64,000 nucleotides of DNA from Shigella phage SF1-1: the sequence record PQ571307. One strand, written 5' to 3'. The notes under the pieces are model-generated. The model made no database searches. It was not told the DNA's origin and saw only the letters and a program-made list of their open reading frames with translations. Position numbers and translations under genes: made by a program. Shown here in pieces: positions 9,102 through 18,060 of the stretch (positions are counted from its first letter, which is position 1; each line of letters starts with the position of its first letter).

Positions 9102-10682
9102 GATAATCTCCTCTCATCGTTAGCCATCTTTCATGGCAATCATCAATCACCAACATCATACGATCAATCTCAGGGAATTACAATCGAATTATCATAGGGG
9201 ATTCCTATCAATTATCCCATATATACCGATTATTTTTGACACCCCACTCTTGTATAAAAAGTAACCCAAAATATCTACGGGGAGAGATTATTTCGACACA
9301 CCCTGTTTCATGGCAATCATGGCAAGAATATCTAATAGAATCAATATCATATGGCAAAAATCATGGCGCATACGTAAGAAGTGCTTAACGCGAATTTTCG
9401 GGCCGTCAGGTCCACGCAGCGACAATTCCCAAATATCATGAGAATGAGAATAATTATCATTCGTATTCAATGACTTATGCAAGGCTTATGCCAACGTAGC
9501 GACAAAGTGGGCCACTTGATTATAAATCACACAAACACTTATTTATCAATGGTTTGGCAACTTCATCATATGACGGAACATTGTCAACTGATCCCGCTCA
9601 TAACAAGCAGACTATTATTTATATGAGAATGATTATTATTTAAACGTTTATTAACATAAAAACTAAAATAAATCAAGAATTTTCTGATTTTATTTACGTT
9701 TAAGAGAAGATGCTCAACATATCGCTACGCGATAGTATTCGCCCCCGTAATATTTGCTCTTTTCTTAGTGCTCAACATTCCCGCCCGTGGCGGTAACATT
9801 TCGCCCCCAAAATTATTGACTTTTATTCTATTATGTGCACACTATGCAACCTGTCGCTACCGACCGCCCTCCGGTCGGGGTAGCATCGCGCTATTCGCTC
9901 ATGTTGCTACGTGCAATTATTCATCTTGCTAATGATTTCATATTGTAACCATTACAATGATTATTGTTATTGCGCTAATGTTATGATCTTGGTAATTACA
10001 TATAATGCTAATAATAAGCCAGCGCAATAAGTGTAAGCGTAATTACGCTTGCAATTATTGCAAGCTACGCAATAACAAGAAATAACCGTCACCGATGGTT
10101 ATGATTGTTGGGGTGTAGTTGGCTTATTATTAGCTCGCTATGTGTCCGGCATAGCGTGCTAATGATGACTCTGTGAATGATTCGTTTTGTAATGATTTCA
10201 TTCAGGCACTATTTTGCTAATAGTTATTATTTTAATGGTTTCGTTTGTTATTGTTCGTTAGTTGGTTGTTTTGTCGTGTTATCGTTATCTTGCTTAGTAT
10301 TCATCATGGTTTGATTGTTTGTTGTTATCAATCATCTTGCTATTATTCCTTTGATTATGATTAGTTTGCTTATTGTTTTATGTTGTTTGTTGGTTAGTTG
10401 TTGCGAACTATTATCAACATGATAGTTATGCGCTTATATTGCATAGATAATCATGGGTAGATGATAATGGTTATCATTGCACTAGAAAGGAGGTAAAAAG
10501 GTGTTTTTGATGGTTTGTTGTTGGTTGTTGATCGATTTTAACCGCTATAAATGGCTCTCTAACAGCCTGTTGCCCTGGGGTGTATGGTTATTCGTTTAAT
10601 GGCTGATTAGCTCGATACCGCGATTTATTCAATTTTATTCTGTGTCGGTTTTTCATAGGCGAAAGCTATCAACATTGTTCGG
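9102..10682. other. 1.6 kb non-coding AT-rich regulatory region with palindromes, GTT-rich tracts and repeated motifs (candidate origin / operator cluster)
   Basis: No credible ORF; perfect palindromes AAGCGTAATTACGCTT and GCTTGCAATTATTGCAAGC near 10040-10075; GCGCAATAA x3; GAGAAT-gATTATCATT motif at 9438-9463 and 9623-9641; GC hairpin 9868-9890. Confidence 0.6.
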
Positions 10683-10683
10683 G

Positions 10684-10711
10684 CAAAAAGAAAGGGCGCT
10701 TGGTGCGCCCT
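10684..10711 (-). terminator. rho-independent terminator
   Basis: Minus-strand hairpin GGGCGCACCAAGCGCCC followed by TTTCTTTTTG. Confidence 0.65.
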
Positions 10712-10726
10712 GGTATGAAATGTTGT

Positions 10727-11110
10727 TTATTGATAAGCTGGATCGTTTGTTATATCAATCCAATGAGCTAAATTAATTTTATTTTTTGCTTTCATTTTCT
10801 CGATCAAACGTTCGGCTAATGTTTCTGAACGAATATAAACGTTTTCGCTAAAATCTTGCCCCGTTTCTTCGTCGATCATCTCACGATATTCGATTTTTCC
10901 GATAAACGCGTGATTCAGCGCATAAGTTTTACCCGTGTACCAGTTATGTAAATGGATCTCACATTTATAATCATCGCTATACCCTTCGGTTGTTCTAACT
11001 TCAACCAGGTCGCCTTTAAACACTGATAAGCACCACATAGGATCACGGTCTACAGCGCCGTTAAAGTCTTTACCGTTTACAGTCGCTGCCAGGTTGATGA
11101 TATTGCTCAT
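10727..11110 (-). CDS. hypothetical protein
   Basis: 127 aa ORF downstream of promoter-hairpin cassette. Confidence 0.55.
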   Translation of the reverse strand: MSNIINLAATVNGKDFNGAVDRDPMWCLSVFKGDLVEVRTTEGYSDDYKCEIHLHNWYTGKTYALNHAFIGKIEYREMIDEETGQDFSENVYIRSETLAERLIEKMKAKNKINLAHWIDITNDPAYQ

Positions 11111-11130
11111 CGTGTAATCCTCTCGTTTGC

Positions 11131-11190
11131 TTTGGGAACTATTCCCGCCGCCCTATGAATTAAATATACACTATCTCAAAATGATTGCAA
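11131..11190 (-). promoter_or_regulatory. sigma70-like promoter (TTGCAA-16-TATATT) plus 5' UTR GC hairpin
   Basis: Member of repeated promoter-hairpin cassette family. Confidence 0.55.
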
Positions 11191-11207
11191 GCCTTTTTCT
11201 AAATTAT

Positions 11208-11492
11208 TTATGCAGTAAACAAACCATCATTTACAACGGCGGCGATGATCTCCCGCGCCATTGATTCAGGGAACGGGTCGCTATAGTCCTGGCTTGTCTC
11301 GTCGCTGTCTGTTATCCAATGATAAGCCAACGAGTAAAAGCCTTTACTGCTTGTTTTCAGTGATATGATGATCACACGATCAAGCCCATCGGTAAACGTT
11401 GCCGTTAATGTGCTATCATCTTGCATCGTGCCGGACAAATAAGCGGCATCATTAACCATGGAAAACATTAGCACGGTGTTAGCTTTACGCAT
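11208..11492 (-). CDS. hypothetical protein
   Basis: 94 aa ORF. Confidence 0.5.
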   Translation of the reverse strand: MRKANTVLMFSMVNDAAYLSGTMQDDSTLTATFTDGLDRVIIISLKTSSKGFYSLAYHWITDSDETSQDYSDPFPESMAREIIAAVVNDGLFTA

Positions 11493-11534
11493 GATTTCAT
11501 CCTCAAAGGGGGCGCTTGATGCGCCCTTGTTATG

Positions 11535-16184: not shown

Positions 16185-16239
16185 CGGGAACTATTCCCGC
16201 TTTATGTAACATATTAACAAATTATTCGTTAATGTCAAA
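16185..16239 (-). promoter_or_regulatory. sigma70 promoter (TTGACA-17-TAATAT) plus GC hairpin AGCGGGAATAGTTCCCGCT
   Basis: Cassette family member. Confidence 0.6.
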
Positions 16240-16241
16240 CC

Positions 16242-16574
16242 TTAAAGCAAAAACGCTACATCTTGCGCTTTTAGTGTAGTATCAACCATTTTCGGGCTTT
16301 TATAATCCACAAAGCGCGCGGTTTTTTCAATAGCAAAACCGAGATAATCTTGTTTATTGAATTTACATTCTTTCTTAAATGTTTCCCGCGCCACGGTGAT
16401 CGCTGCGTCCAGGGATAAACGCCCGTCAATGTTGATATTTGCGAAAGATCCGCCACCGCTCACAGGTTTACCAGTGGTGCCAGCTACGATCATTGTTGCG
16501 CTATATGATGCCATGATTATAATCTCTCTTCTGTTGTGAGCGGCTGGACCATTCCGCCGCCCTATGTGATACAT
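16242..16574 (-). CDS. hypothetical protein
   Basis: 110 aa ORF. Confidence 0.5.
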   Translation of the reverse strand: MYHIGRRNGPAAHNRREIIIMASYSATMIVAGTTGKPVSGGGSFANINIDGRLSLDAAITVARETFKKECKFNKQDYLGFAIEKTARFVDYKSPKMVDTTLKAQDVAFLL

Positions 16575-16600
16575 CTTATCAGGTTGTTGGTTGTTGTCAA
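16538..16600 (-). promoter_or_regulatory. sigma70 promoter (TTGACA-16-TAAGAT) plus GC hairpin
   Basis: Cassette family member. Confidence 0.6.
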
Positions 16601-16606
16601 TACTTT

Positions 16607-16894
16607 TTATTCTATTCCTGCAATCTGATTAACGCGTTTGCATTTTGTAGCGTGCTGGTCTTCTGTAATTACTCCCATTTCTAACAGTGAATCAATGAAA
16701 GATAAAACCGTTTCATAATCATCCTGGGGATGACTGAACTCAGTAAAACCGTTTACTACCACGTTTATTTGTCCAGCTTTCGCCACAATGTGCAATGTCG
16801 CCATGATTTTAACTCCAAATAATGAGCGGCACCATTGCCGCCCTACGTGGTAAATATTATGCCGCCACCTGGCGAACGTCAATCGCTTTTTCAA
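16607..16894 (-). CDS. hypothetical protein
   Basis: 95 aa ORF. Confidence 0.45.
   Translation of the reverse strand: MKKRLTFARWRHNIYHVGRQWCRSLFGVKIMATLHIVAKAGQINVVVNGFTEFSHPQDDYETVLSFIDSLLEMGVITEDQHATKCKRVNQIAGIE
16823..16882 (-). promoter_or_regulatory. sigma70 promoter (TTGACG-16-ATAATA) plus GC hairpin
   Basis: Cassette family member (overlaps 5' end of the 16607-16894 ORF; true start of that ORF may be further downstream). Confidence 0.45.
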
Positions 16895-16991
16895 TCTTTT
16901 TTATTTTCTTTTTGCTTGCTATATATAAAGGAAAGGGCTATCATCTTTCTACCGCGCCAACCAGGGCGCACAACAAAGAAAGGGCGACACC

Positions 16992-17264
16992 ATGACAAAT
17001 ACTACATTACACCTTATGCACTCATTGGGCTGGCAAGGCGGCACCGTTCACCAGGTAGCAAGCCATACAGGGTTAACCGTGATGGAAGTCCTAGACTTAC
17101 ACACTTTCCCAATATCAAATGTTATAGCCCACGGACACGGCTTAAAGGCGGTAAAAATGTGTGTAGTGGATATATGCGGCGCAGCCTATTCAACGTGTGG
17201 TTATAAACCGGATCGGATCTCCTTTTGGCGTGGCGTCTTGGACGCACAAAATGTGCAAAAATAA
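16992..17264 (+). CDS. hypothetical protein in GC-rich island (opposite strand to neighbours)
   Basis: 90 aa ORF; local GC clearly higher than surroundings; candidate promoter TTGCTA-17-TATCAT upstream; weak RBS. Confidence 0.25.
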   Translation: MTNTTLHLMHSLGWQGGTVHQVASHTGLTVMEVLDLHTFPISNVIAHGHGLKAVKMCVVDICGAAYSTCGYKPDRISFWRGVLDAQNVQK

Positions 17265-17504
17265 TGTTGACAACCTGGCGTAAGCTGGGCTAAACTGTAC
17301 CCATACAGAAGAGTAAACGCCACCCCACGGCGTAAAGGCGGGGCTAACATACCAGGGCGCTGGTTGGAAGGTTGATCGCCGGTAGGCTGGGCGCTATATA
17401 TTTGTAAAGAAATGTAAAGATAAAATAATCGCTTGCTTTCCTGGCTGGATCTGTTATTCTTATTACATGGCGAGGGGACACGGGAGCGCGAGACAAACAC
17501 CGCC

Positions 17505-18060
17505 CCTGCGCGTCATTCTCTAAATGAGAATGATTATCATTTACCTTATTGAATAAGAATAAATCTCATTTATAAACTTAAATGCGAATCATTATCATTT
17601 GCATTTCCATATGAGAACTCTTCTCATTCTCACCTGCATAAATTTTTGTAAACTTTAAATTTTGCTTTTGTACTTTCATTTTTGTAAAAGCAAAAAAACT
17701 TTAAATACTGTGGGCGCGCAAAATTTTTAAAATTTTCCTTGACTTTTGAGTTTTGTTTTGTATCTGACATTTTAAGATAATTTTCCTAAACTTTAAATTT
17801 TGGTTTTCAACTTTCACTTTTGTAAATTCTTAAAAAGTTTAAATAATTTGAGGGATTTTTGAGATAATAGGTAGTGGGAATTTGAGATAACCTTTAATCT
17901 TATTGGTAAACCTTCAGGAACCCACTTAGATCGAATCCTAGTGATGCAAACTGAAAAAGATAAGGGTTTGTATAGGACAAAATAACAGGCTCTCTACGGT
18001 GCTGTAGGAGCCTTATTTCTGTGCTACAAAGTGACACCTTTGTTCTAAAAATGAAAAAAG
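17505..18060. repeat. AT-rich iteron / operator region
   Basis: About 45 bp direct repeat (AAACTTTAAATTTTG.TTT..ACTTTCA.TTTTGTAAA) at about 17650-17695 and 17780-17825; AAACTTTAAAT x4; palindromes CATTCTCTAAATGAGAATG (17511-17531) and ATGAGAACTCTTCTCAT (17611-17627); GAGAATGATTATCATTT motif. Confidence 0.55.

Follow-up and report, generated by a model that had tools for sequence, protein, structure and literature searches.

Why do two untranslated regions of a virulent phage repeat a palindrome that resembles the Fur box of its host, and which protein is meant to read it? The window analysed here is a stretch of 64,000 nucleotides from Shigella phage SF1-1 (PQ571307), and is a phAPEC8-like Phapecoctavirus. 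A sequence-only reading had listed four motif copies in two non-coding regions and had proposed either host Fur or a dimeric regulator of the phage as the protein that binds them. All four copies are present where they were reported. As that reading had it, the motif belongs to two untranslated stretches, region A (9102–10726) and region B (17500–18014), which hold all eight of the sites in the window that score at least 18 bits on a Fur matrix.

Strength and enrichment of the Fur boxes

The Fur matrix was derived with an unseeded palindromic Gibbs sampler from 12 Fur-repressed intergenic regions of E. coli K-12. In 13 of 30 restarts the sampler converged on AATGATAATAATTATCATT, the M9/7-1-7 model for a single dimer (Chen et al. 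2007, PMC2189734). On this matrix the 12 host sites score 12.8–23.6 bits leave-one-out (15.1–24.7 bits self-inclusive) and the phage sites score 27.7, 27.2, 24.6, 23.2, 21.5, 20.1, 18.4 and 18.2 bits. On this scale the phage boxes equal or surpass the Fur sites of the host itself. The matrix scan, which the sequence-only reading had named in advance as one check on Fur-box resemblance, is thus clearly positive (18.2–27.7 bits), and the resemblance holds at the level of the sequence. The best copy had been given as matching 15 of 19 positions of the classical 19-mer; two sites in fact match 16 of 19, at 9440–9458 (plus strand) and 17526–17544 (minus strand).

The eight sites of at least 18 bits compare with an expectation of 0.115 under a second-order Markov model of the window, and of only 0.019 under a model of the AT-rich non-coding DNA itself. 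The eight highest matrix matches of the window are all in region A or B. With up to three mismatches, ATGAGAATGATTATCATT occurs at five loci in the 64 kb against 0.14 expected. A search of the rest of the genome had also been suggested; in the complete 144.8-kb genome of the relative DIJ07P2, every match of at least 18 bits lies within the two homologous regions and nothing reaches this score outside them.

The boxes share with the E. coli Fur operators (fecI, ryhB, fhuF, fepA-fes) the same 19-bp dyad, AATGAKAAT-N-ATTMTCATT, and the half-site spectrum of the phage boxes agrees with that of the host. The fecI box and the first box of region B differ at 2 of 19 positions. The TGAGAAT half-site was considered as a deviant form and this was rejected, as it is present in the host boxes of fecI (TATGAGAATGGTTATCATT), ryhB, fhuA, exbB and fhuE. 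Chen et al. 2007 describe clusters of Fur sites that overlap with shifts of 3 or 6 bp. Partners at +6, typical of E. coli Fur operators, exceed random flanks at only two of seven phage sites, those at 9443 and 17581. The phage sites are as strong as the E. coli operators or stronger; unlike these, they are set in 29-bp phased arrays rather than overlapping 6-bp clusters, have no recognisable -35/-10 underneath and have no iron-related gene adjacent.

Boxes and features of regions A and B

Region A is 1.6 kb without genes (ORF list) within a minus-strand early gene cluster, bordered by a terminator at 10693–10711 (minus strand, terminator scan) and a gene at 8727–9101 (minus strand). It is unannotated in most relatives; in phage PaulScherrer, a Justusliebigvirus, a 'putative DNA-binding protein' is annotated beside it. 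Four boxes are scattered over 1 kb of this region, without the promoter and leader module found in region B. Box A1 (9443–9461, AATGAGAATAATTATCATT, 27.7 bits) is accompanied by an additional GAGAAT hexamer at 9438–9443 and overlaps a +6 partner at 9449–9467 (16.3 bits, P=0.03 against random flanks); it is unchanged in phiWec179 and PaulScherrer. Box A2 (9622–9640, TATGAGAATGATTATTATT, 23.2 bits) is kept in phiWec179 (19.5 bits) and PaulScherrer (17.9 and 19.4 bits). Box A3 (10213–10231, TTTGCTAATAGTTATTATT) is the weakest call of the region at 18.4 bits and is also found in DIJ07P2. Box A4 (10460–10478, GATGATAATGGTTATCATT, 21.5 bits) is kept in phiWec179 (21.5 bits) and PaulScherrer (24.7 bits).

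In region B the boxes form a regular array of four, starting at 17523, 17552, 17581 and 17610 with an exact period of 29 bp, which is the dominant box spacing. This regularity emerges because the degenerate copy at 17552 is included. Box B1 (17523–17541, AATGAGAATGATTATCATT, 27.2 bits) starts 33 nt past the conserved GAGACAAACACC. Box B2, the degenerate copy, is at 17552–17570 (AATAAGAATAAATCTCATT, 20.1 bits). Box B3 (17581–17599, AATGCGAATCATTATCATT, 24.6 bits) has a +6 partner at 17587–17605 (17.1 bits, P=0.015), and its 19-mer is identical in the T5-like phage saus111K at position 9509. Box B4 (17610–17628, TATGAGAACTCTTCTCATT, 18.2 bits) is the second of two palindromes that had been described, correctly placed at 17611–17627. 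The first palindrome exists as well, but as CATTCTC (17514–17520), TAA and ATGAGAATG (17524–17532) rather than at 17511–17531. The earlier count of four copies missed three sites, namely A3, A4 and B2.

Two plus-strand promoters lie 60–250 bp upstream of the region B boxes. P1 (17267–17296) is a sigma-70 promoter close to consensus (TTGACA-N18-TAAACT, 10/12 in the scan) and preceded by an A-rich element. It is directed at the Fur array, against the orientation of the flanking genes, is kept in muut, phiTE and FFH2, and is built like the annotated early promoters of phAPEC8. The P2-like promoter and leader (17433–17513) consist of TTGCTT ... TCTTAT followed by a GC-rich segment conserved in alignments, in which GAGACAAACACC at 17490–17501 is invariant. 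It probably gives rise to a leader RNA that encodes no protein; with RNAalifold the leader showed neither a convincing consensus nor covariation support, and Rfam had no match to it. The ORF that overlaps P2 and the leader (17201–17500, minus strand) belongs to no Pfam or PHROG family. No conserved strong promoter was found over any box, and weak matches in AT-rich DNA are too many to interpret.

Downstream of the array is an AT-rich block (17641–17850) with two 72-nt direct repeats, at 17641–17712 and 17779–17850 (repeat search), in the position taken by lineage-specific iteron-like repeats in other genera. Region B ends in a hairpin terminator at 17988–18014, annotated in phAPEC8 as that of the minus-strand NADAR gene; by inspection only, it can be read on the plus strand too. 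The neighbours of region B are the NADAR protein and small ORFs without assigned function, and many small early proteins of uncharacterised function flank both regions. Against Rfam 15, regions A and B gave zero matches at gathering thresholds and chance-level matches only in E-value mode. The two regions are best explained as untranslated control regions of an early gene cluster dependent on the host RNA polymerase.

Conservation in related and unrelated phages

The boxes are kept in six genera, Phapecoctavirus, Justusliebigvirus, Certrevirus, Vequintavirus, Seunavirus and Mydovirus. Their hosts include Pectobacterium (Certrevirus), Salmonella and E. coli (Seunavirus) and Klebsiella (Mydovirus), with E. 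coli likewise among the hosts of the six genera as a whole. Where the leader segment GAGACAAWCACC is recognisable, a box of 23.6–27.2 bits is placed at +31 to +33 from it, in Vequintavirus, Seunavirus GE_vB_MG and IMG/VR contig L021. By inspection, the phiTE box is likewise at +33 in the printed segments, and the upstream copy in Vequintavirus has its box at +31 from the variant GAGACAACCACC. The segment is divergent in KpS8 and LNA4 (GAGTACAAAACACC). A second box 29 bp past the first is also present in phiTE, Vequintavirus, KpS8 and LNA4, and in Vequintavirus the entire module of promoter, leader and box is duplicated. The repeats downstream of the boxes are wholly different by lineage, whereas the boxes are invariant: phiTE has GATCGAGACCC, Vequintavirus, Seunavirus and the IMG/VR contig each have their own, and some of these repeats contain GATC.

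Clusters of Fur boxes of 22–27.7 bits were also found by matrix scan in the T5-like phages saus111K (9152–9672) and ESCO30 (135–640), where they sit in the injection-stop region (iss). Many metagenomic viral contigs in IMG/VR, retrieved by one exact box and without an assigned host, carry arrays. No published description of such phage Fur-box arrays was found in the literature; a preprint by Davison (bioRxiv 10.1101/866236) describes palindromes and DnaA boxes and never mentions Fur. The T5 region it covers, Untranslated Repeat Region 3, is like those studied here gene-free, repeat-rich and highly conserved, and it too belongs to the part of a large virulent coliphage that is expressed first. 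It differs in belonging to an unrelated family (Demerecviridae) and in lying in a terminal repeat with paired DnaA boxes in inverted repeats, an arrangement that was not found in the window. DnaA boxes (TTWTNCACA) number 6 in the window against 10.8 expected, with only one for regions A and B, at 17252.

Which protein binds the boxes

The identity, strength, clustering, genome-wide exclusivity and conservation of the motif are observed, and on sequence grounds its copies are probably genuine sites bound by host Fur. Of the two binders that had been proposed, host Fur is the one supported, because neither a Fur homologue in the phage nor a recognisable DNA-binding protein next to the boxes was found, because the boxes are invariant in six genera while the adjoining repeats diverge, and because the same boxes occur in unrelated T5-like phages. 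The palindromes could instead be operators of a dimeric phage regulator, or of another host protein that mimics or coincides with Fur specificity. The uncharacterised small early proteins around the regions, the protein annotated beside region A in PaulScherrer and the frequency of TGAGAAT/ATTCTCA halves in the phage copies would fit this. It is nonetheless very unlikely: coincidence would hardly produce 27 bits on a host matrix that was derived independently, the motif stays constant across genera and recurs in T5-like phages and diverse IMG/VR contigs, and the ORFs adjoining the boxes gave no match to a Fur-like or HTH family.

That the copies act as RNA, forming weak hairpins or terminators in the P2 transcript, or that they are mere AT-rich chance matches, can hardly be correct. 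A terminator scan does return GTCATTCTCTAAATGAGAATGAT and TATCATTTAC at 17512–17534, and RNAalifold pairs GAATGA with TCATTC inside box B1. The half-site differences do not preserve pairing, however, with G opposite A in TGAGAAT-G-ATTATCA, the tails lack U-runs, and the same boxes are also found where that context is absent, in region A and in other phages. A chance origin of the copies is excluded by simulations.

Possible functions of the arrays

When the cell has ample iron, the strong sites of each genome, at least eight, would be filled by Fe2+-Fur dimers. In region B four dimers, or dimer pairs, spaced 29 bp apart would lie directly 3' of the two conserved plus-strand sigma-70 promoters and the GC-rich leader, and directly 5' of the AT-rich iteron-like repeats. 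The bound Fur may form a cis-acting, iron-responsive nucleoprotein gate that limits or shapes the transcription from P1 and P2 entering the repeat block, a candidate replication or control region, and the gate would be released on iron starvation. That Fur occupies the sites, that this depends on iron and that it works as a gate are inferences. The statement as a whole, that a virulent phage carries genuine Fur sites in its early control regions and that these act as a gate in cis, has about an even chance of being right; the gate mechanism taken separately is possible rather than probable. In its favour, the conserved near-consensus P1 points at the array. In classical Fur repression the box overlaps the -35/-10, but the phage boxes overlap no convincing one, and a Fur roadblock is to our knowledge no established mechanism. 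Blocking a phage function in favourable iron-replete cells is also not obviously adaptive, and one mechanism may not fit both regions, because the region A boxes are spread without the promoter and leader module.

The arrays might have no local role and serve as a decoy, with replicating genomes, in hundreds of copies of at least eight sites each, titrating Fur off the host operators. Multicopy Fur boxes derepress Fur-controlled reporters in the Fur titration assay, which likewise places many high-affinity boxes on a high-copy replicon; it is a laboratory assay, and we know of no natural element that uses Fur titration as a strategy. The multiple, clustered sites match or exceed 12 natural operators in strength, have no tie to a recognisable promoter and recur in unrelated phages, all of which speaks for a decoy. 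Iron uptake and other Fur-regulon genes would then be derepressed, for example feeding an iron-dependent ribonucleotide reductase of the phage, and relatives do encode NrdA/NrdB (PMC7344957). The constant offset of the first box from the leader segment, where this is recognisable, and the duplication of the whole module in Vequintavirus indicate instead a local role in cis, and the decoy is on the whole unlikely. Early in infection one genome copy is negligible against thousands of Fur molecules, and derepression late in infection would gain little if the host genes were no longer being transcribed by then.

It is distinctly unlikely, too, that region B is origin architecture, a 'Fur-some' in which four phased palindromes and AT-rich repeats act like the iterons of the lambda origin. 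The origin would be bound by host Fur, or by another protein that Fur assists, the bound protein would wrap the DNA and help to open the AT-rich region, and P1 and P2 would provide activating or priming transcription. The lambda origin has four dyad-symmetric iterons and an AT-rich region, with the iterons inside the initiator gene and co-varying with it. Region B shares with it four evenly spaced dyads of about 19 bp (the 29-bp period) beside AT-rich repeats (the 72-nt pair), and transcription entering from a nearby promoter. The order of promoter, structured leader, dyads, direct repeats and terminator, the lineage-specific iteron-like repeats of other genera, some with GATC, and the proximity of boxes to DnaA boxes in T5-like phages all speak for an origin. 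Unlike the lambda iterons, the dyads of region B, a candidate origin, correspond to a regulator of the host, stay constant in six genera instead of co-evolving with an initiator, and have NADAR and small ORFs beside them rather than an initiator gene. We know of no mapped origin in these phages, nor of any part that Fur plays in replication. GC skew tracks transcription only, the window has no excess of DnaA boxes, and region A lacks the layout of promoter, leader and array. For T5, mapping placed the origins around the middle of the genome and not in the terminal repeat (bioRxiv 10.1101/866236).

Implications for phage biology

A host Fur box on a phage genome has a precedent among temperate phages, in which the Shiga toxin 1 promoter is under Fur through a single operator over the promoter of one prophage toxin gene. 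Both cases would make phage-borne expression iron-responsive, yet here the phage is strictly virulent and its untranslated regions hold at least eight sites, with no cargo gene. It is conceivable, though improbable, that host Fur has been enlisted by convergence, as a DNA-binding structural element, in unrelated families of large virulent phages of enterobacteria, namely the rV5/phAPEC8/phi92 group, T5-like phages and others. If so, the phased Fur arrays would be a nucleoprotein complex beside iterons or DnaA boxes that couples an early genome-level event to the iron status of the host, which would be origin firing here and the arrest or resumption of DNA entry at the T5 iss. The boxes suggest more generally that the phage plugs into the iron sensor of its host, where they may serve as a transcription gate, as origin architecture or as a Fur decoy.

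Predicted Fur boxes in two gene-free regions

The phAPEC8-like phages of the genus Phapecoctavirus (Stephanstirmvirinae) are 150-kb E. coli myoviruses. Some 60-150 Phapecoctavirus phages in GenBank match 9200-10000 and 17300-18000 of the SF1-1 window, with 92-99% identity. From ~6.8 kb to 24.5 kb every gene is on the minus strand, and the counterpart stretch in phAPEC8 is annotated as small hypothetical genes with host-type promoters in front, therefore this is taken to be an early region. Region A (9102-10726) is bounded by a terminator at 10693-10711 (minus strand) and the gene 8727-9101 (minus strand); region B (17500-18014) is flanked on one side by a GC-rich ORF of doubtful status and on the other by the terminator belonging to a NADAR-domain gene. 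No tRNAs or Rfam families were found in the 64 kb of the window.

The sequence-only reading had listed four copies of an operator motif resembling the box of the host ferric uptake regulator, Fur, and two palindromes, in non-coding DNA. All are present, and every copy is within region A or region B. Five loci match ATGAGAATGATTATCATT with up to 3 mismatches, as against 0.14 matches expected. The list was incomplete, having overlooked 10460-10478, 10213-10231 and a degenerate copy at 17552-17570, and the best match to the classical Fur consensus GATAATGATAATCATTATC is 16 of 19 positions, at two sites, rather than 15 of 19. Once the copy at 17552 is counted, the copies of region B form a regular array, at 17523, 17552, 17581 and 17610; a repeat search of this region returns two spacings, each of 29 bp.

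Fur boxes are textbook elements. A matrix was derived from 12 intergenic regions of Fur-repressed K-12 operons (fepA-fes, fepD-entS, fepB-entC, fhuA, cirA, fiu, tonB, exbB, fecI, fhuF, ryhB, and fhuE) using an unseeded palindromic Gibbs sampler with 30 restarts. The same optimum was reached in 13 of these, with the consensus AATGATAATAATTATCATT, which is the single-dimer M9/7-1-7 model of Chen et al. 2007 (PMC2189734). Left out one at a time, the 12 genuine host sites score 12.8-23.6 bits (median 19.3); the self-inclusive range is 15.1-24.7 bits. The best eight matrix positions in the 64-kb window are all within regions A or B. Region A has A1 at 9443 (27.7 bits), A2 at 9622 (23.2 bits), A3 at 10213 (18.4 bits), and A4 at 10460 (21.5 bits), and region B has B1 at 17523 (27.2 bits), B2 at 17552 (20.1 bits), B3 at 17581 (24.6 bits), and B4 at 17610 (18.2 bits). 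The scores in this position weight matrix scan, which had been proposed as a check on the earlier reading, are clearly not below threshold. These eight sites of at least 18 bits compare with 0.115 expected under a second-order Markov model of the window and 0.019 when the model is trained on just the AT-rich non-coding DNA; chance matches are effectively excluded as an explanation of the boxes.

The TGAGAAT half-site, which had seemed puzzling, is normal for Fur, being present in the host fecI, ryhB, fhuA, exbB, and fhuE boxes. The fecI box, TATGAGAATGGTTATCATT, has two differences from phage box B1, and the phage and host half-site spectra are alike. A scan of DIJ07P2, a close relative whose complete genome is 144.8 kb, places all matches of at least 18 bits in the counterparts of regions A and B, the top match elsewhere scoring 17.1 bits. 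Isolated matches of 17-17.6 bits are also present in the SF1-1 window beyond these regions, at 14818-14836, 24891-24909, and 31739-31757, the first overlapping the start codon of the minus-strand ORF 14452-14835. These three are within the range of weak natural sites, with a chance expectation of ~0.5 per window at 16 bits or more. The ARG, Zur, and IHF consensus sequences were compared by eye as identities for the motif and rejected, since their spacings misfit.

Conservation and anatomy of the box arrays

Region B DNA can be aligned with that of Justusliebigvirus (muut), Certrevirus (Pectobacterium phage phiTE), and Vequintavirus (FFH2), and its BLAST matches reach Seunavirus (Salmonella and E. 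coli phages) and Mydovirus (Klebsiella phage KpS8). On the plus strand, the boxes are preceded by P1 (17267-17296), a near-consensus σ70 promoter of the same build as the phage's other early promoters, and by P2, a second element that resembles a promoter and has behind it a GC-rich segment containing the invariant GAGACAAACACC (17490-17501). Wherever GAGACAAACACC is recognisable, a strong Fur box (23.6-27.2 bits) begins 31-33 nt past it; KpS8 and LNA4 have a diverged version, GAGTACAAAACACC. A second box is usually 29 bp beyond the first, and in Vequintavirus there are two copies of the promoter-segment-box module.

The repeat block of region B is wholly different between lineages. The unit is GATCGAGACCC in phiTE, of the CGATCGAGTAC type in Vequintavirus and Seunavirus, and TAATAGTTAC in one IMG/VR contig, with 72-nt AT-rich repeats in the window. 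Invariant boxes with diverging repeats are the pattern expected of boxes used by a conserved host protein and repeats used by a co-evolving phage protein. In region A, identity to Justusliebigvirus is only ~73% and patchy, with boxes kept at 17-27.7 bits. The pseudo-ToxI of phiTE was considered as a counterpart of region B and rejected, the homologous locus being at ~39.6 kb and the antitoxin-mimic repeats at 106.7 kb (PMC3475682).

The ORF 17201-17500 (minus strand; phAPEC8_00257 of phAPEC8) lies across the conserved promoters and leader and fits no family in Pfam or PHROGs. It was taken as spurious and is unlikely to be a gene. In relatives, the ORFs annotated here vary in strand or are missing altogether, a pattern that favours a non-coding function. 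The small ORF 9477-9626 between A1 and A2 was also taken as non-coding; relatives differ in its length, and alignment by inspection shows a 5-nt insertion within it in PaulScherrer. Across 17267-17513 (plus strand), the two conserved promoters drive GC-rich, apparently non-coding segments, and this locus is conserved across two subfamilies. It includes a candidate pseudoknot, CGCCACCCCACGGCGTAAAGGCGGGG, a structure unproven on 10 sequences, and CACGGCKTAAAGGCGG, which is duplicated 190 bp upstream at 17136-17151. The consensus structure of the GC-rich leader (RNAalifold, 10 sequences) has trivial helices only, therefore no structure is claimed for it.

Other repeats of the early region

Region A contains a large inverted-repeat set at 9998-10143, in which 24-nt arms (9998-10021 and 10120-10143) surround a palindrome at 10024-10061 and more hairpins. 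Phapecoctavirus and Justusliebigvirus share this set almost unchanged, and it might act as a structured RNA or form a DNA cruciform. A lengthy stretch of degenerate GTT/GTTT-type repeats, such as TTTGATTGTTTGTTGTT, is found around A3 and A4 at 10240-10560, where the minus strand is CA-rich. The ends of six related GenBank assemblies fall in region A at ~9373-9715 (Mt1B1_P17 and WPEC4, both at ~9387, vB_EcoM_01, ESCO5, REC, and 10C3), a hint that the genome may physically end here, that a terminal repeat may have its boundary here, or that a repeat may break assemblies. The 20-nt 'PHIRE promoters' of phAPEC8, TAGGGCGGCAATGGTGCCGCTCA, are GC hairpins, present in the window at six sites in 13003-16852 and at ~11140-11165. 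At the two annotated host-dependent (σ70) promoters they start right behind the -10 element, and they resemble stem-loops at the 5' ends of early transcripts, not promoters.

T5-like phages and other viral contigs

T5-like phages, which are unrelated to SF1-1, surfaced unexpectedly in the region B BLAST. In ESCO30 (135-640) boxes of 17.7-26.1 bits are present at 141-281 and 620-638, by two TTATCCACA DnaA boxes. In saus111K strong boxes (22-27.7 bits) are clustered at 9152-9672, the right end of the annotated left terminal repeat. This end is the untranslated Repeat Region 3, a candidate injection-stop signal, whose palindromes and DnaA boxes were catalogued in a preprint that never mentions Fur (Davison, bioRxiv 10.1101/866236). 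The homologous region is contained in ~600 T5-like records from Escherichia, Salmonella, and Klebsiella. DnaA boxes, a T5 trait, are not in excess in the SF1-1 window.

An IMG/VR search for exact AATGAGAATNATTATCATT returned at least 120 stretches, on contigs of 3 to 347 kb. Two or more sites of at least 18 bits lie inside 300 bp in 58 of the 120 stretches listed, and three or more in 29; having been chosen for one perfect box, these stretches indicate that arrays are common rather than their frequency. Among the matches listed, 29 and 35 bp are the commonest array spacings. Arrays of 3-7 strong Fur-type boxes are seen in many unrelated contigs, including a jumbo contig of 346 kb (examples among the fetched loci L029-L148 are L059 5780-5906, L033 3358-3471, and L041 2542-2751), and other direct repeats often come after them.

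Possible roles of the boxes

From their sequence, the phage boxes are likely to be bound by Fur. An unlikely alternative is that they are operators of a phage regulator mimicking it. No Fur homologue was found in the phage by tblastn with an E. coli Fur query (E ≥5), nor was a DNA-binding family from Pfam or PHROGs found in the ORFs adjoining regions A and B. Hairpins acting at the RNA level are effectively excluded. An Rfam search of regions A and B returned no known RNA family at gathering or permissive thresholds.

No convincing promoter lies under the boxes, promoter-like matches in AT-rich DNA being uninformative; assignment of boxes to promoters by a weighted -35/-10 scan was abandoned, as this gave far too many matches in such DNA. 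The region B array is inside a self-contained plus-strand unit made up of P1/P2, the GC-rich leader, four boxes, the AT-rich repeats, and a closing hairpin, which on inspection looks like a terminator in either direction. Because of this position, the favoured reading is that Fur on the boxes would form a cis-acting, iron-responsive gate or scaffold, which would control the effect of P1/P2 transcription on the repeat block. That the boxes are a sponge titrating Fur fits the strength and number of the sites, and is unlikely, since their local geometry is conserved and the stoichiometry early in infection is against it. Rather doubtful too, and placed slightly lower, is a lambda-like origin at which Fur would be the site-binding protein; the layout of region B fits one, while GC and AT skew are uninformative, tracking only the direction of transcription.

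Significance

To our knowledge, phage-borne Fur control is known from single cargo promoters of temperate phages. The sites are not described in the Certrevirus genome paper or in the full-text literature on Fur with Phapecoctavirus, Vequintavirus/rV5, T5 or lytic phages, coverage of which was incomplete, so an earlier description is possible. The predicted element is an ordinary Fur box; it is the context that is unusual, virulent phages of unrelated families having phased arrays of consensus strength in their untranslated control regions. A strictly lytic phage carries predicted Fur sites of this strength in gene-free control regions, and the same arrangement is present in relatives on four host genera and in the T5-like phages. 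If Fur binds, virulent phages would sense or manipulate the iron state of the host. This would matter for how phages perform where iron is limited, as in the gut, serum, and urine, and hence for phage therapy. Fur would also be a concrete, testable candidate factor for the long-unexplained T5 repeat region, the site of the pause in DNA injection.
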